A model generated the notes under the pieces. The model was not told where the DNA came from and searched no databases. It saw nothing but the letters and a program-made list of their open reading frames with translations. From the NCBI GenBank assembly GCA_029093185.1, contig GCA_029093185.1_4348.1: a stretch of DNA of 43,655 nt. The stretch is one strand, 5' to 3'. Made by a program: the position numbers and the translations under genes. Origin of the DNA: a phage. Shown piece after piece: positions 2,461 to 8,915 of this stretch. Each line of letters starts with the position of its first letter. Positions within the stretch are counted from its first letter, which is position 1.

Positions 2461-3087
2461 TTAGCGGCGGCGACGTTCGCGGCGCGGTGCTTCATCTTCT
2501 TCGTCGTCTTCCAGGTCATTGACGCTCGCAGCGACTTTAGAACCGCCGAACGCTTTGCCTTCGCCAACGTATTTAATCGCCAGCAGGTTAACGCCGAGGA
2601 CTTTGTATTTCTGGCTGAACCAGATTTCAACGCTTACGTTAGCTAAGCATCCGCTGTAAACCTGTTCACCTTCAATCTGTTCGCCGTCTACGTTGAAGTC
2701 CTGCTCTACCTGAGTCTCACCTTTTTTAGAGGTTACAATCAGCGGCTGTTTCTGTGCCTTCGCTTTGAAGTAGAAGCCTTCCGGGAAGTCTTCAAACGGA
2801 TTGTCGCGCTCGGCAATGTCTTTAATCGCGCATTTATCCATGTGCTTACCTTCACCGTAGTTGGACTTCATCCATTTCTCGGCAGCGGCTGCGCCTAACG
2901 CTTCTTCAACTACAGCGTAAACGGTGTCGTAGAGTGCATCGATTTGAGCATGGTCAGACGGCAGGATAATAGTCGCGCTGTACTGGCCTTTAGTGATTGA
3001 GCCATCATCGTTTTCACGGTCTTTTTCGCGTTCGAATACGTTAACCCAAGCAGTGTTTACTTTACGCAGATTCAGTTTAATACCCAT
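2461..3087 (-). CDS. DUF2815-like phage ssDNA-binding protein
   Basis: 208 aa; acidic tail DLEDDEEDE then RRERRRR; sits between a Cas4-like nuclease and PolA, the position this family usually occupies. Confidence 0.5.
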   Translation of the reverse strand: MGIKLNLRKVNTAWVNVFEREKDRENDDGSITKGQYSATIILPSDHAQIDALYDTVYAVVEEALGAAAAEKWMKSNYGEGKHMDKCAIKDIAERDNPFEDFPEGFYFKAKAQKQPLIVTSKKGETQVEQDFNVDGEQIEGEQVYSGCLANVSVEIWFSQKYKVLGVNLLAIKYVGEGKAFGGSKVAASVNDLEDDEEDEAPRRERRRR

Positions 3088-3175: not shown

Positions 3176-3364
3176 ATAAAATTTCGCAATACGGACTATG
3201 TTCTCGAAATCATTCATATCAACGGGTTCGAATTCATCCTCCACATGGTTGTATCGCACCATCGTGCCGTTCAGGAACGTAAACGATTCCGAATGGATAT
3301 AACCGCCCCAGCGCCATATCATCACAAAATCTTTATCTGTGGGCATTTCATTTACTTGAATCAT
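3161..3364 (-). CDS. Hypothetical protein
   Basis: 67-aa ORF; its ATG overlaps the upstream stop (ATGA) and is preceded by GAGGAGGA. Confidence 0.5.
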   Translation of the reverse strand: MIQVNEMPTDKDFVMIWRWGGYIHSESFTFLNGTMVRYNHVEDEFEPVDMNDFENIVRIAKFYLTPE

Positions 3365-4602
3365 TCTAAATCCTCCTCTGTTACCCTATTCCACTCAGGA
3401 CGTTTGTCGTCTGCCGTTGCAACACATGGTGCGCCTGGCTTACGGGTAATGAAGTCTTTCAGTTCTTCTTCCGGTATGACTTTAACCGCTTCGGTTGGCG
3501 TCATGAGCACTTGCTTCATTAGCGCTATGCCATACTTGCCAGCCACTTTCTCTGCGTCTTTCCACGCACGATTGCCCGGGCGGCCCTCAACCAGCTTGTA
3601 CCCCGGCACTTTCTTACCGGAATGCAACGCGGTGGCCATCGCTTTCTCAACCTTGTCGATGTGCTGGCGCAACAACGGCAACTTCTCATATTCAGCTACG
3701 AGTTGCTCCGGCGTAAGTTCCAGCGCAAAGTCGTCCTCCAGTTCTTCCGCCAGTACAGAGTTAACGGTTTTTGTACGCGCGGCACACTGTTCAGAGAACC
3801 GACACCACTGACAACCATCTACAGACGGCTTGAAATCAGATGCTTTCAGGTTCTTCTTACCGCGGAAATACGCATCAAGCGCCAACAGTGCACGTTTCTT
3901 GGCAAACTTAGCGAACAGTTCCAGACCTTCAACCGAGATGTCCCACTCCGACGCACCGCCAGCGTACGGCTGGAAGATGACCAGGCGCACTACTGTGATG
4001 TTATAACGTCTCTTGAGTCGGCGATAAACACCGAGAGCGTAAAGCATAAGCTGCTTGTTTTCTTTCGCTTCGACGCGATGCCGCCCGGTTTTCAGGTCGC
4101 CGATAATGAGCATGTGCTCGTCGGTGTTTGCCAGTTCCTGTACAGCAACGAGGTCAGCGGTTCCGAACGTCTCAACGCCTTCATACCCCGGATGCAATAC
4201 CTCAGTAAGATTGACACGCATTTCCAGCTTGGCGTAAGTCGCTACGTCTATAATCGCTTTGCAGTAGTCGGTGTACTTGCGCACCTGCTCAATCATGTCC
4301 GCCGTAATCAGTACCGCGCCTTTCATCGGGCTGATTAGCGCCTTAATCTGACCTTTACCCTCATCCAGCACGTAAGCACCGACTTCACGTTCTAACGGCA
4401 GCGCAGTGCCACGGATATGAGCGTTGAGATGGACCTCGGCTATGGTGTGACACGCGGTCCCCGTAACAGCAGCTTTACCGGACGTGTTAGGAATATCTTT
4501 TTCACAGGCCAGTGATGCACTGCACGCCAGCCACTTTTTGGCGCCAGACGGCGACAGTAAGGCGTGCACATCGTTATTGCCACCGCGTTCTTTTAGAATC
4601 AT
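3361..4602 (-). CDS. Cas4/RecB-like PD-(D/E)xK exonuclease (DUF2800-like) with probable 4Fe-4S cysteines
   Basis: 413 aa; RecB-family motifs IIGDLKTG and QLMLYALG; N-terminal Cys pair (WLACSASLAC) plus C-terminal CQWCRFSEQC; C-terminus ends VTEEDLE. Confidence 0.7.
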   Translation of the reverse strand: MILKERGGNNDVHALLSPSGAKKWLACSASLACEKDIPNTSGKAAVTGTACHTIAEVHLNAHIRGTALPLEREVGAYVLDEGKGQIKALISPMKGAVLITADMIEQVRKYTDYCKAIIDVATYAKLEMRVNLTEVLHPGYEGVETFGTADLVAVQELANTDEHMLIIGDLKTGRHRVEAKENKQLMLYALGVYRRLKRRYNITVVRLVIFQPYAGGASEWDISVEGLELFAKFAKKRALLALDAYFRGKKNLKASDFKPSVDGCQWCRFSEQCAARTKTVNSVLAEELEDDFALELTPEQLVAEYEKLPLLRQHIDKVEKAMATALHSGKKVPGYKLVEGRPGNRAWKDAEKVAGKYGIALMKQVLMTPTEAVKVIPEEELKDFITRKPGAPCVATADDKRPEWNRVTEEDLE

Positions 4603-4961
4603 CGTAAACTCTCCAAATACAAGTTTAATGCCTGTAGCTGTTCTTCTGTGGGAATGAAAGAATCATCGCGACGTAAGTCGCTTAACTGTTGCAGCATTCC
4701 TGCGAACTTACGTCTTGCGTCAACAGCGACAATGTGATGCTTTTCACTTTTATATATTAAGGTTTTCGGGTAATCCTCAATCCTGCCAGACGATTTATTC
4801 ACGCGGAGTGCGCGATCTTCATGCGCAATGTGTATGTACTTTTTGCCGTTTTGTAGCACAGTAGCTACACCGCTGTTCTTTCTGCGGTCGCCGACGGTGT
4901 AAACTTTGTCGCCGCTGCGCAAATTAAGCCACCATTTATCAGTCATACCCTGTTCTCCCAC
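4599..4961 (-). CDS. Hypothetical protein
   Basis: 120-aa ORF, 4-bp overlap with the downstream gene; no recognisable motif. Confidence 0.5.
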   Translation of the reverse strand: MGEQGMTDKWWLNLRSGDKVYTVGDRRKNSGVATVLQNGKKYIHIAHEDRALRVNKSSGRIEDYPKTLIYKSEKHHIVAVDARRKFAGMLQQLSDLRRDDSFIPTEEQLQALNLYLESLR

Positions 4962-5215
4962 TGGTCAATTAAATGCCGTGTCTTGTGGTCGCAATGTAAG
5001 GCCCATCCATACATCGACTCGAAGACATAAAAGTCAGGCTTGGCGAAAGTTGTGCGCTTAATCTGTGACACGTGACGGCCTATATCTTTAGGCCGTGGTA
5101 CTTTTCCTAAGTACGCCATCTCTTCCATCTGGTGCGCACCGGACGGAGCACGCAATAGCCATAGCGCCTCTGTGTTATCCCGCCTGTCGACGGCTCGGTA
5201 GAGTTGGTAAATCAT
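4943..5215 (-). CDS. Hypothetical protein
   Basis: 90-aa ORF in the operon; contains HCDHKTRH, a possible metal-binding patch. Confidence 0.45.
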   Translation of the reverse strand: MIYQLYRAVDRRDNTEALWLLRAPSGAHQMEEMAYLGKVPRPKDIGRHVSQIKRTTFAKPDFYVFESMYGWALHCDHKTRHLIDQWENRV

Positions 5216-5227
5216 AATTCCGACCCT

Positions 5228-5251
5228 CAGTTAAAGCGGCCCGAAGGCCGC
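5228..5251 (-). terminator. Intra-operon hairpin, possible attenuator/terminator
   Basis: GCGGCC / GGCCGC stem with 4-nt loop (5236-5251); T-rich tract follows on the minus strand. Confidence 0.35.
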
Positions 5252-5258
5252 GAGATAG

Positions 5259-5759
5259 TTATTCTTCTTCGAAATACTTGTTCTTGATTGCTGTCAGGCG
5301 TTCCAGGTATTCAGCCAGGTCTTCGTCTTTAATCGCTGCAATCTTCATTTTCTTACCTGTGAACTCTTCCAGCAGTTCATCAGAATCATCGCACGCGGCA
5401 TCGCTCGGACCTTCGTTAATTGCATCGTCGATAGCCTGAATCTGGTCGCGCAGAGACTTATAGTCTACTTCTTCTTTCTCTTCTTCCGGCTCTGGCGTCG
5501 TTTCCTCTACTTTAGCTTTACGCGGCTTGCGTTTTGGCTTCTCTTCCTCCGCCGGTTTAGTGTCAACTACGTCTTCACCTTCAACCGGGATTTCTTTTGT
5601 TGCTTCTTCAGCGCACTCAGCTACCGCTTCTTTGGTGTACGATACCGTCTCTACTTCCAGCGGCGTGGCAACCTGAACAACTTGTTTCGCACTGTTCGCG
5701 GCAATCAGTTCGTGCGCAACTACGAAACGTTCCAGTAATACTAAGAATTTCTCTAACAT
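5259..5759 (-). CDS. Highly acidic low-complexity protein
   Basis: 166 aa; central Glu/Lys/Pro-rich tract (EEEKPKRKPRKAKVEETTPEPEEEKEE) and acidic C-terminus. Confidence 0.55.
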   Translation of the reverse strand: MLEKFLVLLERFVVAHELIAANSAKQVVQVATPLEVETVSYTKEAVAECAEEATKEIPVEGEDVVDTKPAEEEKPKRKPRKAKVEETTPEPEEEKEEVDYKSLRDQIQAIDDAINEGPSDAACDDSDELLEEFTGKKMKIAAIKDEDLAEYLERLTAIKNKYFEEE

Positions 5760-5783
5760 TATTTATTCTCCTGTTTATTTGGG

Positions 5784-6011
5784 CTACTCGCCGTCGCCTT
5801 CTGTAAGGCTATCGTCTATTAATTCAAATTTACCGTTTGGGTGTTGAATAGCTTCTTGCCCGCAATGGTCGCAGACAACAAGTTTATCGAACCCATCAAA
5901 CTCATCCCCTACTACGCAAGAAAGTACAAATTTATGTTTTGTGCACACTTCTTGCGGAGCGCCGAAAATTGCTCGAAAACCTTTAGCTATGGCCCCAGTG
6001 ATTGTGTTCAT
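5784..6011 (-). CDS. Small zinc-ribbon protein
   Basis: 75 aa with CTKHK...C and CDHC cysteine/histidine pairs. Confidence 0.5.
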   Translation of the reverse strand: MNTITGAIAKGFRAIFGAPQEVCTKHKFVLSCVVGDEFDGFDKLVVCDHCGQEAIQHPNGKFELIDDSLTEGDGE

Positions 6012-6039
6012 ATCTGCCCCTCTCGTTTGGTATGGGCTA

Positions 6040-6068
6040 ACTATAATAGCGAACTATTCACATGTCAA
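6040..6068 (-). promoter_or_regulatory. Sigma70-type promoter with embedded operator palindrome
   Basis: Minus strand TTGACA (rc of 6063-6068), 17 nt, TATAGT (rc of 6040-6045); contains TAATAG-CGAA-CTATTC. A degenerate second copy (TAATAT-GGTA-CTATTC) lies at 6088-6107 just upstream of the XRE gene. Confidence 0.6.
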
Positions 6069-6132
6069 TGGGCTTTTCTAAAATAATTAATATGGTACTA
6101 TTCACATATCAACTGACTAAGGAGTAATTGAC

Positions 6133-6348
6133 ATGCAACCATCTGAACTAGGCATCCGTGTAGAACAACGCCGCAAAGAACTCGGCATCTCCCAGCGCCG
6201 TTTGGCGGCCCTGACCGGCGTTTCCCAGGGCGCGATTAACCAACTGGCACTTGGAGTAACTCAGGACGTCCGCCCGGCAACGCTGTTCAAACTGGCGGAA
6301 GTTCTGGAAGTAGACGCCAAGTGGCTGGCGTTAGGTGAAGGGGCTTAA
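6133..6348 (+). CDS. XRE-family (Cro/CI-like) helix-turn-helix regulator
   Basis: 71 aa; HTH signature ISQRRLAALTGVSQGAINQLALG; AAGGAG Shine-Dalgarno 9 nt upstream. Confidence 0.8.
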   Translation: MQPSELGIRVEQRRKELGISQRRLAALTGVSQGAINQLALGVTQDVRPATLFKLAEVLEVDAKWLALGEGA

Positions 6349-6364
6349 AGCCCCTTTCTTTTTA
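6338..6364 (+). terminator. Rho-independent terminator of the XRE gene
   Basis: Hairpin GGGGC-TTAAA-GCCCC whose loop contains the XRE stop codon, followed by TTTCTTTTT. Confidence 0.55.
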
Positions 6365-6365
6365 C

Positions 6366-8624
6366 CTATTCCAAATCCTCCTCTGTCACCACCAGCATCT
6401 CATTTGGTTCGTATAGTGTCTTCGGCCTTAATCTATCCCCTATTCTTTCGGGTATACGATATGTTCTCGGTACTACTTCGCCGTTAGCATCGCAACCAAG
6501 CATTAGTTCTCCATCTTTCAACATTTTATCAAGATGGGTGTTAGTCACAGAGAAGTCACCGGAACGAGCCACTATCTGCTGCTGAGTAAAACCGCGACCT
6601 GTGTCATCTGACTGTTGCAGGTCTTCCAGTGCCGAAAGTATTGACTCCTTCCTTACTTCATCCCTGCCGCGTTTAACTTCTTCCTTTACTTTTTGCTTAC
6701 CTTCTTTCGTCAACCCTTCTTCCCGCTCTTTCTCCTCGTCAGTTTTGAACGGCTCGAAACCCCACGGCATCAACACAAGCGCCTTGTGTGGTTCAGGCAG
6801 GTCCAGGTTTACGATTGTGCCGTATTCCTCTGTGCTACCCAGGAACTCAACCGCTCGGTATTCTTTAGGCGGCGGCGCTTCACGGAACTGTACCGACTCC
6901 AGCACCATGCCAACCGTCTTCTGCTGAGGCCCGTGCTTGAATTTCGAGTGATATACGTTTATCTGACGGTCGGTTGCACGTTCGATTGTCAGTTCCACGT
7001 CAACACCCGCATACAGCGCCCCACTGCCGCGTGCTTTCTTTCCACCCTTCGGCGTATGGTGGACAACGCCTACTGCGGCTTTAGTTGCATCGCGTACTTC
7101 TTTCAGAATGGCGATAACTTTACCCATGCCGATTGCTGTTGATGAACTGTTCTCGTCGAACTTATCAATCGTCAGGGCCAGCGTCTGGTTAAGGGTGTCG
7201 AAGGCAACCATGCCAATAGGTTCATCCCCTGCGGTTTCGCGCATCCTGCGGATTAGAGCTGGAATTTTTTTATCACCATGCGTAGCGAGTATTTCGCCCA
7301 TATCGATGACATGTACATAATCTTTACCTTCCTCGCCATATTTAGCCGCGAGTGCATCAATACGTGTTCGTGTAGCTGCACCACCCTCGCCGTCAATATA
7401 GAAATGGTGGCAACGTTGGGTGTCAGCCCCCGCAAACCGGTACCCGGCGGCGCTCAGGTACATCATCCCCAGCGTATAGAATGATTTGTACGTGCCGGAT
7501 TCCCCGACAATATCCCAGATACAATCCGACGGCATGTACCCCTCAACGACGAAATCAGCCTTTACCGGTTCTGGTAACTCGTCCTCCTCTGAGTCCTCGT
7601 CGTCTTCCAGGTCGTCGAGGCTGCATGAGACAGATTCACGCGCCCCCCAACCGATGGCCTCTGCGACTTCACTGAACGGCAGCCCGGTCGCATCGCACGC
7701 GTACTTCCACACCTCTTTCGGTGACAGGCCTTCTGTCGCCGTAATGTCTGTGTCGTGAATCATGGTTACGTTTGGCGCTTCATACCCCTCGCGCGGGAAG
7801 CACAGCAGGAAGTCGTCCGGGCGCGGTGTCGGGTCGCTGTAGTTTTCGGCATGTTCCGGTGTGGCTGGCATCTTAAGGCCGCGCGGCGTCATGACGCCGC
7901 CGTACTCAAACGCCAGTGCTTCAAACGCGTCTGTAAACGCGGTGCGCAGTTCTTCCGGTATCTGGTAATCCGATGCGCTGCTAACGTCAACGGCTGGGAT
8001 GCCTTCCAGTAACTCGTTCGGGTCGATCAGGTCGTTGCGGCGCGACCAGATAACGGTAGCGCCGACCGGCGGCAGGTACATCGGCTGCGACAGAGTGAAC
8101 CCGCTGCGGTCCGCACCCATGCCTTTGAAGAAGTGCTCCAGCAACCCATGACGAACACGGATGATGTCACCACCCTCCACCGGACGGGCCAGTGGCATTA
8201 CGACGCGAAAGCGCGGTGACTCATCAGTATGTGATGCCGTGGTATAGAGGCACATGGCCCAGCGGCTGCGCTTAACCAGGCGCACCGCTTCCTGATACTC
8301 TTCCGGTGTTGTGCTGTCGAAATCCAGATAGGCCAGCGACGATTTGCTTACAGACGCATCGCAGCGGTAGAAAAAACCTTTACGCGCTTGCTTAAAGTCT
8401 CCAGTTTCCGGGTCTTTTACGGTGCTGTGCGTTGAGTCGCACGCGGCGGTGATATAACCGGGCGCGGTCTTAGGGTTAATCCCGTCGCGAACGGCATCGA
8501 GCGGCTGGATTAACTCTTTCAGGTCGTCCAGTGTTGCCGTGTGTGCGGTTCTGACATTTATATCCTTTTTTCCCGCCCGCGCGTTGCGGCGTGACCACGA
8601 GTAGGATAAAATTACATCGGACAT
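6366..8624 (-). CDS. DNA primase/helicase (RecA-like AAA_25-type ATPase with N-terminal primase-like domain)
   Basis: 752 aa; Walker A GESGTYKS; VGVVHHTPKGG motif typical of RepA/AAA_25 helicases; C-terminus ends VVTEEDLE. Confidence 0.65.
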   Translation of the reverse strand: MSDVILSYSWSRRNARAGKKDINVRTAHTATLDDLKELIQPLDAVRDGINPKTAPGYITAACDSTHSTVKDPETGDFKQARKGFFYRCDASVSKSSLAYLDFDSTTPEEYQEAVRLVKRSRWAMCLYTTASHTDESPRFRVVMPLARPVEGGDIIRVRHGLLEHFFKGMGADRSGFTLSQPMYLPPVGATVIWSRRNDLIDPNELLEGIPAVDVSSASDYQIPEELRTAFTDAFEALAFEYGGVMTPRGLKMPATPEHAENYSDPTPRPDDFLLCFPREGYEAPNVTMIHDTDITATEGLSPKEVWKYACDATGLPFSEVAEAIGWGARESVSCSLDDLEDDEDSEEDELPEPVKADFVVEGYMPSDCIWDIVGESGTYKSFYTLGMMYLSAAGYRFAGADTQRCHHFYIDGEGGAATRTRIDALAAKYGEEGKDYVHVIDMGEILATHGDKKIPALIRRMRETAGDEPIGMVAFDTLNQTLALTIDKFDENSSSTAIGMGKVIAILKEVRDATKAAVGVVHHTPKGGKKARGSGALYAGVDVELTIERATDRQINVYHSKFKHGPQQKTVGMVLESVQFREAPPPKEYRAVEFLGSTEEYGTIVNLDLPEPHKALVLMPWGFEPFKTDEEKEREEGLTKEGKQKVKEEVKRGRDEVRKESILSALEDLQQSDDTGRGFTQQQIVARSGDFSVTNTHLDKMLKDGELMLGCDANGEVVPRTYRIPERIGDRLRPKTLYEPNEMLVVTEEDLE

Positions 8625-8681: not shown

Positions 8682-8915
8682 TTATTCCAGGTCTTCTAAA
8701 GTGGCTGTCACCCCACGAACTTCGGCAACAGCACTATATCTCCCGCCAACATTTTTCACGACACCAGATTTAACCAGCACCTTCAACGACCCTTCAATGA
8801 TGGCGGAACTATAGTACCTAAAATAACTGCGGCGCAAGTCCATAACGCTGCACGACCCTTTTTTACGTGTTACCGAAACAACCGCCGTAAATACGCGTGA
8901 CTGGAACTCGGTCAT
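8682..8915 (-). CDS. Hypothetical replication-associated protein
   Basis: 77 aa; C-terminus ends TLEDLE, matching the tails of the nuclease and primase-helicase. Confidence 0.5.
   Translation of the reverse strand: MTEFQSRVFTAVVSVTRKKGSCSVMDLRRSYFRYYSSAIIEGSLKVLVKSGVVKNVGGRYSAVAEVRGVTATLEDLE

Follow-up and report, generated by a model that had tools for sequence, protein, structure and literature searches.

The window analysed here, a stretch of 43,655 nucleotides of phage DNA, carries on its minus strand a complete open reading frame (positions 5259 to 5759) that begins with ATG and encodes 166 amino acids plus a stop codon. The coordinates and length given for this ORF in an earlier note, which had been made from the sequence alone, were borne out. 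The ORF is clearly coding, as judged from a match to phrog_3127 along its full length, 2481 homologue clusters and synonymous changes over invariant N-terminal codons. The product has a molecular mass of 18.7 kDa, a pI of 4.43 and a net charge of -22, and contains 33 Glu and 12 Asp residues (27%) together with 18 Lys and 8 Pro. The claim that it is highly acidic therefore holds, and the window's 63 ORFs with 100 or more amino acids include no product more acidic than this one, with a net charge per residue of -0.133 (-0.088 for the next) and an Asp plus Glu content well above the mean of 9.7% (SD 4.8). The Glu/Asp-rich and Lys/Pro-rich tracts and the acidic C-terminus previously ascribed to it are likewise all present. 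An acidic run spans amino acids 44 to 73, and a second one, EETTPEPEEEKEEVD, spans amino acids 85 to 99. These lie on either side of a basic Lys/Pro/Arg patch, KPKRKPRKAK (amino acids 74 to 83; positions 5511 to 5540, minus strand), and the protein ends in KYFEEE.

A Shine-Dalgarno sequence, AGGAG (5768 to 5772, minus strand), is located 8 nucleotides 5′ of the start codon. Farther upstream, ahead of a 75-amino-acid ORF and the acidic gene, is a sigma-70-type promoter sequence (TTGACA-17-TATAGT; 6040 to 6068, minus strand) with 11 matches out of 12, a strong predicted promoter that probably drives both genes. It is contained in one copy of a 25-nucleotide direct repeat whose second copy occupies positions 6088 to 6112. 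The acidic gene adjoins a Cro-like regulator and is an early gene. A GC-rich hairpin that follows its stop codon was considered as a terminator and set aside because its folding was no better than that of shuffled sequence (z = -0.88). A replication origin hidden in the part of the gene that encodes the linker described below, as in lambda O, was also rejected because a search of the ORF for tandem repeats or iterons in its DNA found none.

Downstream of the acidic gene and on the same strand are, in order, a 90-amino-acid ORF that is a homologue of HK578 gp43 (4943 to 5215), a 120-amino-acid ORF whose product is ProQ-C-like, a DUF2800 exonuclease of the PD-(D/E)XK (Cas4-like) type whose C-terminal tail reads ...VTEEDLE (3361 to 4602), a Gp2.5-like (Enc34-type) SSB/annealing protein with an unusual C-terminal tail (2461 to 3087), and a family A DNA polymerase (69 to 2303), which is the last gene of this duf2800-gp2.5-polA module. 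The earlier placement of the acidic gene in a replication operon is thus correct for these downstream genes, but not for the helicase-primase gene upstream, since an HTH gene on the plus strand and a region of divergent promoters lie between it and them. The arrangement of a divergent early promoter followed by the acidic gene and then by the exonuclease, SSB and PolA genes is kept in Kagunavirus, Jerseyvirus, Cornellvirus, Tsm2 and 37P2, in the Dhillonvirus phages SO-1 and HK578, and in eiAU. From one to three small genes separate the acidic gene from the exonuclease gene in Guernseyvirinae and Dhillonvirus. Few replication/recombination cassettes of tailed phages are as widespread as this module, whose exonuclease alone was present in 1300 phage records, and it is headed by a conserved, unnamed fourth gene that has neither a Pfam family nor a solved structure.

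The acidic protein matched the phrog_3127 profile with an E value of 1e-67 (229 bits; residues 1 to 166 against profile positions 1 to 177 of 178). This family is distributed over 486 Guernseyvirinae and 155 Dhillonvirus records and includes SO-1 gp46 and HK578_044. The source genome is that of a Kagunavirus close to phage Bas74, and the protein is 100% identical to Bas74_0047. Members of phrog_3127 frequently bear the label "13.88 kDa late protein", which we traced to Salmonella phage MB78 (UniProt Q9T1Z8); a literature search found no functional study of a protein under this label or of phrog_3127. The label is an uninformative inherited name for an 18.7 kDa protein encoded in an early/replication operon, and its removal would be an immediate gain for annotation.

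Searches for more distant relatives of known function returned little. There was no Pfam match at E ≤ 0.1, and no sequence relative was found in the PDB. Foldseek comparison with the PDB gave no match at E ≤ 0.001 (best E value 2.4), with generic helical bundles as the top matches, and when two AF2 models were compared by Foldseek with the PDB, and one of them with BFVD, nothing significant emerged outside the family. A TonB match (NCBIfam) reached 15.8 bits against a cut-off of 265 and is compositional, being due to the Glu/Lys/Pro tract, and an apparent fusion to an AAA protein (BFVD A0A8S5SDY1, E = 0.023) lacked sequence support in an exhaustive search of representatives.

The disorder and charge-distribution analysis that had been proposed as a check was carried out with AF2 models and by mapping the charge runs given above. 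Disorder (pLDDT below 50) was confined to amino acids 24 to 99, and the protein is accordingly predicted to consist of an N-terminal helix, a disordered linker and an acidic three-helix C-terminal domain. The description of the protein as low in complexity therefore applies only to its middle, approximately amino acids 24 to 99, and not to the flanking segments, which are predicted to be helical. The N-terminal segment (amino acids 1 to 23, MLEKFLVLLERFVVAHELIAANS; 5691 to 5759, minus strand) is modeled as a helix from residue 2 through 22 with a pLDDT of about 75. It can be read as three heptads (LEKFLVL/LERFVVA/HELIAAN) that are hydrophobic at five of the seven positions. The mixed-charge linker (5463 to 5690, minus strand) is variable across the family in sequence, in length (36 to 103 amino acids) and in net charge (-10 to +6). 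One short stretch of it, amino acids 55 to 69 (KEIPVEGEDVVDTKP; 5553 to 5597, minus strand), recurs in the alignment in many otherwise divergent family members. The C-terminal domain (amino acids 100 to 166; 5262 to 5462, minus strand) is modeled with helices at amino acids 100 to 116, 120 to 134 and 145 to 164 (pLDDT 87 to 93), and the last 64 amino acids of the protein carry a net charge of -11. This domain is duplicated in family members P0134 and P0148. In another sequence, P0145, the N-terminal helix is followed by an unrelated C-terminus; its source is a metagenomic scaffold of 515 bp that is probably chimeric, and it was discarded as an example of domain swapping.

Conservation is greatest in the N-terminal helix, which retains 20 to 22 of its 23 residues across Guernseyvirinae and is nearly invariant in phages of E. 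coli, Salmonella, Serratia and Klebsiella. Its identity (87 to 96%) exceeds that of the polymerase (72%), the exonuclease (about 60%), the SSB (45 to 51%) and the helicase-primase (about 30%). Because synonymous codon changes are present in this segment, the constraint acts on the protein, and we dismissed the possibility that a DNA or RNA element is being conserved there. Kagunavirus and Dhillonvirus, both of which infect E. coli, have different residues at 13 of the 23 helix positions.

Proteins of the same layout, with an N-terminal helix, a linker rich in Lys, Glu, Pro and Ala and a C-terminal helical domain, are encoded directly upstream of DUF2800 in the Chi-like phages Stilesk and Enc34 and in APSE-7, Xfas53, Staphylococcus phage LH1, Streptococcus phage Javan112 and Bacteroides phage BF486P3. 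The same position and three-part layout characterize the proteins of phrog_408, phrog_3709, phrog_7721, phrog_5053, phrog_19269 and phrog_33976, including LH1 gp37, Javan112_50, Enc34 ORF3 and APSE gene 17. Several of these families are connected by profile matches: residues 231 to 294 of APSE gene 17 matched both phrog_3127 (E = 6.8e-4) and phrog_3709 (E = 5e-4), Javan112_50 matched phrog_408 (E = 7e-25) and phrog_3709 (E = 3e-12), LH1 gp37 matched phrog_408, phrog_3709 and phrog_7721, and chains of cross-matches link phrog_408, phrog_3709, phrog_7721 and phrog_5053. Profile-profile alignment of the C-terminal domains with hhalign gave a probability of 83% (P = 8.9e-6) over 38 columns, and a motif of the form h..L..[FY]G[AV]xK[LI]Sx[LI]x[DE][DE]x[YFL] is common to the C-terminal regions of the acidic protein and the other DUF2800-upstream proteins. 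AF2 models of the acidic protein and the Staphylococcus homologue have identical topology. These comparisons show that the C-terminal domain is homologous to that of the DUF2800-upstream proteins of other phages. The N-terminal helices compared between phage groups (hhalign E = 0.18) have only their helical, hydrophobic character in common. For proteins of Agrobacterium phage 7-7-1 and of Liberibacter the match is limited to position and architecture, and no cross-family profile match was found.

In APSE-7, LH1 and Xfas53, the upstream gene overlaps the start codon of the exonuclease gene. Such stop/start overlap, along with the fact that adjacency to DUF2800 is the tightest and most widespread association of the family, would suit a protein devoted to regulating or inhibiting the Cas4-like exonuclease of the phage itself, which, in the manner of nuclease-immunity pairs, might be kept inactive or aimed at the right DNA ends. 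Many nuclease inhibitors are small helical proteins of acidic character. We nevertheless regard this role as distinctly unlikely, given that other genes are inserted before the exonuclease gene in the window and in its relatives, and that a helix, spacer and domain in series resemble a tether rather than a compact inhibitor. The exonuclease has been co-expressed in E. coli in a retron study, only for retron-dependent growth effects.

The acidity of the protein is not shared by the wider family. A hyper-acidic C-terminal domain (net charge -7 to -20) was found only in Guernseyvirinae and Dhillonvirus, where the SSB has a tail composed of an Arg block, an acidic block and a second Arg block (PRRRRSR-acid-RPRRRRR in relatives). 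The tail of the SSB in the window reads DLEDDEEDE-APRRERRRR (positions 2464 to 2517). Outside these two groups, the C-terminal domain is about neutral (net charge -4 to +2), and the accompanying SSBs, unlike the one in the window, have retained the canonical acidic tail, with F or L as its last residue. Because the C-terminal homologues in phages of Gram-positive bacteria and of Bacteroides are not acidic, acidity is not the conserved property of the family. The correlation of acidity with SSB tail type involves two related lineages and so amounts effectively to one evolutionary event.

We propose that the acidic protein serves as an adaptor or tether of the duf2800-gp2.5-polA replication-recombination module, a proposal to which we assign a probability of roughly 0.4. 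It is best read as the enterobacterial, hyper-acidic form of a widespread unnamed accessory protein of this module. The conservation pattern, in which the helix is constant, the linker is variable and the C-terminal domain can be duplicated, agrees with a pair of binding modules connected by a spacer. Partnership with the proteins of the module is likelier than a host-directed DNA mimic because the family is invariably located directly ahead of the genes for an exonuclease, a DNA-binding protein and a polymerase. Since the exonuclease is dispensable in a Dhillonvirus, where premature truncations are tolerated, a partner of this enzyme need not be essential, and strict conservation of the gene is by itself no pointer to a role in the replisome.

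As for partners, oligomeric state and functional outcome, we would infer the following. The hydrophobic heptad helix at the N-terminus may be an anchor that either self-associates as a coiled coil or docks into a groove of a partner, with the disordered linker as a flexible spacer, and the three helices of the C-terminal domain would provide the binding site for a second protein of the module. In Guernseyvirinae and Dhillonvirus this domain has turned strongly acidic and Arg-rich blocks have been added to the C-terminal end of the SSB; there the acidic domain might electrostatically engage the SSB tail or the DNA-binding surface of the SSB. This engagement could control the SSB/annealase or act on it as a chaperone, and could link it to the exonuclease and the polymerase. 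If the protein does tether or regulate these three proteins, the view of how this T7-like replisome is organized would change. The extent to which recombineering systems of the gp2.5 type can be moved from host to host could then also be explained by the protein, which would be a candidate determinant for the sensing of phages by defence systems.

The T7 system offers a partial parallel to the proposed adaptor. In the T7-type replisome, at least in the account given in PMC5686142, the acidic tail of gp2.5 binds the polymerase and helicase and competes with ssDNA. The module in the window is also of T7 type, with a gp2.5-like SSB and PolA, and its exonuclease, helicase-primase and SSB all bear tails of the [DE][DE]D[FL][DE] type, which end in EEDLE in the exonuclease and helicase-primase. 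The C-terminus of the acidic protein resembles the docking tails of gp2.5 and gp4 in its acidity and in containing aromatic residues (KYFEEE here and YYEIED or YFELED in relatives), but its last residue is acidic and not aromatic or hydrophobic. Moreover, the acidic element is in this case a separate polypeptide with a predicted folded domain, and not the tail of an SSB or helicase.

Both the acidic protein and the SSB have alternating acidic and basic blocks, with KPKRKPRKAK set between acidic runs in the former and an acidic block set between Arg blocks in the latter. A more elaborate possibility is that the protein is a scaffold for charge-driven assembly, whose helices would oligomerize while the linker condenses with the Arg/acid tail of the SSB and with DNA into a replication-recombination compartment. 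The heptad pattern of the helix and the duplicated C-terminal domain of some members would suit such a scaffold, as would its resemblance, by analogy only, to the phosphoprotein tethers of Mononegavirales. We hold it to be very improbable, as it is entirely inferential and the charge of the linker is not conserved over the wider family. In phosphoprotein P of Mononegavirales, a long disordered linker connects a helix that oligomerizes with a bundle of three helices at the C-terminus, and oligomerization is only proposed for the acidic protein. The two are not homologous, the Foldseek matches to Nipah P being at chance level (E = 2.7, probability 0.09), and the biology of RNA viruses differs. 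A related formulation, in which the protein is a phosphoprotein-like oligomeric tether with bundled helices, and with its linker and acidic domain paired with the SSB tail to form a replication-recombination hub or condensate, is quite improbable as well. If it were true, the family upstream of DUF2800 would be an unrecognized fourth core component of the module in phages of Proteobacteria, Firmicutes and Bacteroidota.

The earlier note had offered three functions: mimicry of DNA, inhibition of a host protein that binds nucleic acids, or a chaperone-like role. The last of these comes closest to the function favoured on genomic grounds, partnership with the other proteins of the exonuclease/SSB/polymerase module, whereas the first two gained no specific support: there is no match in Pfam (Ocr, ArdA, Gam), the PDB or Foldseek, half of the protein is predicted to be disordered, and the C-terminal homologues in phages of Gram-positive bacteria and Bacteroides are not acidic. 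On this rival view, a host enzyme that binds DNA would be blocked through nucleic-acid mimicry by the linker and the acidic C-terminal domain, with RecBCD as the most plausible target and lambda Gam, T7 gp5.9 and P22 Abc2 as precedents; the adjacent gp43-like protein might act with it. An early, highly acidic protein produced from a strong predicted sigma-70 promoter at the head of an early operon is what a host-directed inhibitor would be expected to look like. In lambda, gam is located upstream of bet and exo, and the acidic gene is similarly placed upstream of an exonuclease and annealase pair; the three precedents are also small acidic or helical early proteins encoded beside such a pair. 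Moreover, the OLD defence of P2, for which inhibition of RecBCD is the trigger, acts against Kagunaviruses and Dhillonviruses, and one HK578 escaper from OLD has a frameshift in gp43, directly downstream of the homologue of the acidic gene. A helix that is near-invariant over four host genera would also suit a conserved host target.

We consider such inhibition unlikely all the same. The acidic protein has no likeness in sequence or fold to Gam, gp5.9, Abc2, Ocr, ArdA or any solved structure, and with about half of its length predicted by AF2 to be disordered, it is not a rigid array of charges. The OLD-escaper mutations of HK578 lie in gp43, in the helicase-primase gene and in a promoter, leaving the acidic-protein homologue unaffected. 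The 13 of 23 differences in the helix between two phage groups that both grow on E. coli would be better suited to a phage-encoded partner, or to self-association, than to a host target. Nucleic-acid mimicry would not be the conserved function of the family, as the homologous domains are about neutral in phages of Staphylococcus, Streptococcus, Bacteroides and Xylella. With Ocr and ArdA the protein has high negative charge and early expression in common, but it has no Pfam or fold match to them and does not share their rigid, elongated dimeric shape, which imitates B-DNA. An Ocr-like role is further disfavoured by the high sensitivity of Kagunavirus isolates, including Bas74, to restriction-modification systems (10.1101/2024.09.12.612763). 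Were the protein a host inhibitor instead of an adaptor of the module, it would represent a new inhibitor class.

The location of this early gene next to a Cro-like regulator would also be compatible with a role outside the module, either as a transcription or host-takeover factor or as a decoy or trigger for a defence system. We give this little credence, because synteny with the exonuclease, SSB and polymerase genes holds over very different regulatory contexts and hosts. The protein is also distinct from the known Dhillonvirus defence determinants, as Ksap1 (74 amino acids, the trigger of Avs2), anti-Tmn and the portal protein that triggers RAZR are different proteins. The exonuclease, SSB and polymerase of the module are themselves triggers of the retron and Borvo defences, and the mutations recovered in escaper screens of SECphi4 and SECphi18 were not in the acidic gene but in those for the SSB and the polymerase.

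The acidic gene is genuine. Its ORF (5259..5759, minus strand) encodes 166 aa and starts with an ATG that has the Shine-Dalgarno sequence AGGAG 8 nt on its 5′ side, and its product matches the protein family phrog_3127 (E 1e-67) and has homologues in 2481 clusters at 90% identity. The window is a Kagunavirus genome (Guernseyvirinae), and a megablast search with nucleotides 4500-6500 matched 474 phage records, most of them from Guernseyvirinae of Escherichia and Salmonella. The protein is already on record as a hypothetical protein, being 100% identical to Bas74_0047 of Escherichia phage SonjaBuckley_Bas74. With a pI of 4.43 and a net charge of -22 (33 Glu, 12 Asp, 18 Lys, and 8 Pro), it ranks first in acidity among the 63 window ORFs of at least 100 aa, and its Asp plus Glu content is 27% versus a mean of 9.7% (SD 4.8) for that set. 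The earlier note had described a highly acidic protein with Glu/Asp- and Lys/Pro-rich tracts and an acidic C-terminus, and we located all of these: an acidic tract at aa 44-73, the basic tract KPKRKPRKAK at aa 74-83, a second acidic tract at aa 85-99, and the terminus ...KYFEEE. Because no tandem DNA repeats were found in the gene, the tract bias is compositional. The accompanying term "low complexity" fits less well, since the protein, genuine as it is, is more structured than this suggests, with helices predicted at both ends.

An AF2 model built with a 23-sequence alignment predicts an N-terminal helix (aa 2-22, pLDDT ~75), a disordered region (approximately aa 24-99, pLDDT <50), and a three-helix domain (aa 100-116, 120-134, and 145-164, pLDDT 87-93), and conservation in family alignments agrees with this division. 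The first 23 residues, MLxKFLxLLERFVVAHELIAANS, are near-invariant in these alignments and can be read as three heptads that are hydrophobic at 5/7 positions. Between the window and phages Tsm2, VSiP, and 37P2, 20-22 of these 23 residues are identical, compared with identities of 72% for PolA, ~60% for the exonuclease, 45-51% for the SSB, and ~30% for the helicase-primase. The corresponding codons differ synonymously between phages, and thus the constraint acts at the protein level. The middle of the protein varies in length and sequence while retaining the short motif IPVEGEDVVDTKP and basic patches; the C-terminal domain, which is present twice in two representative homologues (P0134 and P0148), is moderately conserved and terminates in KYY/F-E-x-E. 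Across family members the linker ranges in charge from -10 to +6 and in length from 36 to 103 aa, whereas the C-terminal 64 aa carry a charge of -8 to -21 in every member examined. Therefore, the conserved acidic element is the folded domain and not the low-complexity tract. A charge-driven scaffold or condensate would suit the alternating acidic and basic tracts but not a linker of such variable charge, and we consider it highly improbable.

When 1.84 billion representative proteins were searched exhaustively with HMMER, only 29 family clusters at 50% identity were returned. By tblastn, the protein occurs in 486 phage records, all of Guernseyvirinae type, and a Dhillonvirus form with near-identical ends and different linker lengths occurs in 155 further records. 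Foldseek matches in BFVD were family members only, including MB78 Q9T1Z8 and Edwardsiella phage eiAU Gp46; the latter led to Sodalis phage SO-1 gp46, which shares the three parts when read from Met61 (phrog_3127, E 4e-46). The label "13.88 kDa late protein", repeated across many records, originates from the 123-aa form in Salmonella phage MB78 (UniProt Q9T1Z8) and is misleading for an 18.7-kDa protein of an early/replication operon. The acidic protein had no Pfam match and no sequence relative in the PDB, and Foldseek gave no significant PDB match for its AF2 model or that of a Staphylococcus homologue. A TonB hit was rejected as compositional (15.8 bits versus a cut-off of 265).

The DUF2800 exonuclease, found in 1300 phage records from many host phyla, belongs to the already recognised duf2800-gp2.5-polA module of exonuclease, SSB/annealing protein, and polymerase (PMC8093625). 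We examined the gene directly upstream of DUF2800 in nine distant phages: Chi-like Stilesk and Enc34, APSE-7, Xylella Xfas53, Staphylococcus LH1, Streptococcus Javan112, Bacteroides BF486P3, Agrobacterium 7-7-1, and a Liberibacter phage. All nine proteins have an N-terminal helix, a linker rich in K/E/P/A or Pro (including (KPAE)5 in BF486P3), and a C-terminal helical domain with the motif h..L..[FY]G[AV]xK[LI]Sx[LI]x[DE][DE]x[YFL]. Residues 231-294 of APSE gene 17 match phrog_3127 (E 6.8e-4) and phrog_3709, Javan112_50 matches phrog_408 (E 7e-25) and phrog_3709 (E 3e-12), and LH1 gp37, BF486P3_15, and Xfas53 gp11 cross-match the same family set. The C-terminal profiles of the acidic-protein family and the other groups align by hhalign (Prob 83%, P 8.9e-6), and the Staphylococcus homologue has the same AF2 topology. 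These profile comparisons indicate that the C-terminal domains are homologous across phage groups; homology of the N-terminal helix between groups was not demonstrable in this way, and the Agrobacterium and Liberibacter proteins match in position and architecture only. No upstream protein inspected has a Pfam family or an informative name. The new point is that the acidic protein is part of a broad, unnamed family heading the module. In APSE-7, LH1, and Xfas53 the upstream gene overlaps the exonuclease start codon, an arrangement compatible with a protein dedicated to regulating the phage exonuclease; in the window, two ORFs separate the genes, and we regard this role as unlikely.

The best-supported reading, to which we assign a probability of roughly 0.4, is that the acidic protein is a protein-protein adaptor or tether belonging to the module. 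Its architecture, conservation, synteny, C-terminal-domain homology, and correlation with the SSB tail are observed; partners, oligomeric state, and functional effect are inferred. The N-terminal heptad helix and the C-terminal three-helix domain would be two conserved binding elements joined by a flexible spacer, and in the window's lineage the protein would have become acidic as the SSB acquired an Arg-rich tail. Among the functions proposed earlier, a chaperone-like factor comes nearest to this reading. The C-terminal domain has a charge of -7 to -20 in Guernseyvirinae and Dhillonvirus and is approximately neutral (-4 to +2) outside them, the Chi-like form being intermediate (-7). Outside these groups the SSB has a canonical gp2.5-like acidic tail, such as ...EDDFDELDTDDEDFL; within them, the tail combines Arg-rich and acidic blocks, as in KPRRRRSR-DEDDEDDEDEEEE-RPRRRRR or the window's DLEDDEEDE-APRRERRRR (2464-2517, minus strand), in which Arg-rich residues follow an acidic stretch. 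The canonical tail is purely acidic with an aromatic last residue; the window's tail, like the Arg-block/acid-block/Arg-block tails of its relatives, is unusual for T7-type SSBs. Hyper-acidity is specific to Guernseyvirinae and Dhillonvirus and tracks the SSB tail, but this correlation represents effectively one evolutionary event and is therefore weak evidence. Nevertheless, no other finding points to a specific partner.

The same peptide ends three minus-strand products of the window: the exonuclease (..VTEEDLE, 3364-3381), the helicase-primase (..VTEEDLE, 6369-6386), and a 77-aa ORF (..TLEDLE, 8685-8702). In Tsm2, VSiP, 37P2, and SO-1 the exonuclease and helicase-primase likewise end in (T/S)(D/E)(D/E)DL(E), and [DE][DE]DF[DE] is common to exonuclease and SSB tails of other groups (Gram-positive and Bacteroides phages). 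The shared end resembles a peptide for docking to a common hub. Replisomes of the T7 type use acidic tails for docking, and in Enc34 the SSB tail rests against the surface with which an adjacent molecule binds DNA (PMC5686142).

The operon is predicted to be driven by a strong sigma-70-type promoter (TTGACA-17-TATAGT, 6068..6040, minus strand), opposed by the plus-strand promoter of a Cro/DicA-like HTH gene (6133-6348). The order is a 75-aa ORF, the acidic gene, a 90-aa ORF, a 120-aa ORF with a ProQ-C-like domain, the DUF2800 PD-(D/E)XK exonuclease, a 67-aa ORF, the Enc34/gp2.5-like SSB, and PolA. This order is kept in Tsm2, VSiP, 37P2, TS6, SO-1, HK578, and eiAU with differing small inserts. 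A role unrelated to the module would suit an early gene beside a Cro-like regulator; given the retained order, we judge it very unlikely.

The proposal of a DNA mimic was not supported. A host-directed inhibitor or mimic, with RecBCD as its most plausible target, would accord with the protein's acidity and is doubtful. Bas74 and other Kagunavirus isolates are reportedly very susceptible to restriction-modification systems, with variable susceptibility to OLD (10.1101/2024.09.12.612763), and this restriction sensitivity argues against an Ocr-like role. Dhillonviruses are reported to be OLD-sensitive, and HK578 escapers of P2 OLD carry a gp43 frameshift (1-nt deletion), a helicase-primase point mutation, or a promoter deletion (2026 preprint, 10.64898/2026.07.10.737580). 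By GenBank numbering, gp43 lies directly downstream of HK578_044, the homologue of the acidic protein, and is a homologue of the window's 90-aa ORF (4943-5215, minus strand; phrog_4965, 32% identity, E 3e-10). This neighbour, and not the acidic gene, is therefore the candidate for triggering OLD or manipulating RecBCD. Ksap1, anti-Tmn, and the RAZR trigger were each rejected as identities because each is a different protein. In one Dhillonvirus, truncations of the DUF2800 exonuclease are tolerated, and the protein triggers retron type IX.

Several neighbouring features merit description. The AT-rich intergenic region 6040-6112 (33-36% GC) contains a 25-nt direct repeat in two copies that are 84% identical (6044-6068 and 6088-6112), each overlapping a minus-strand promoter-like site and both faced by the HTH gene promoter; they probably serve as tandem promoter-operator units in the early switch. 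The 75-aa ORF (5784-6011, minus strand; phrog_32657), between promoter and acidic gene, has a small-zinc-ribbon-like Cys pattern, C..C...CDHC, and Bas74 has another small ORF in its place despite an identical acidic protein. A GC-rich hairpin (GCGGCC-UUCG-GGCCGC, 5222-5253, minus strand) directly 3′ of the acidic-gene stop codon is unconvincing as a terminator, since its folding does not surpass that of shuffled sequence (z -0.88) and its U run is short. The 120-aa ORF (4599-4961, minus strand) matches Pfam Phage_ProQ_C_like slightly below the cut-off (E 1.1e-5, 26.5 bits versus 27) and may place an RNA-chaperone-like domain within the replication operon. The helicase-primase gene (6366-8624, minus strand) shares the strand of the exonuclease/SSB/polymerase operon in the window and Bas74 and lies on the opposite strand in Tsm2, VSiP, 37P2, TS6, SO-1, and HK578. 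Its product is only ~30% identical to those of the opposite-strand phages, compared with 72% for the polymerase, and the cassette was apparently swapped or inverted.
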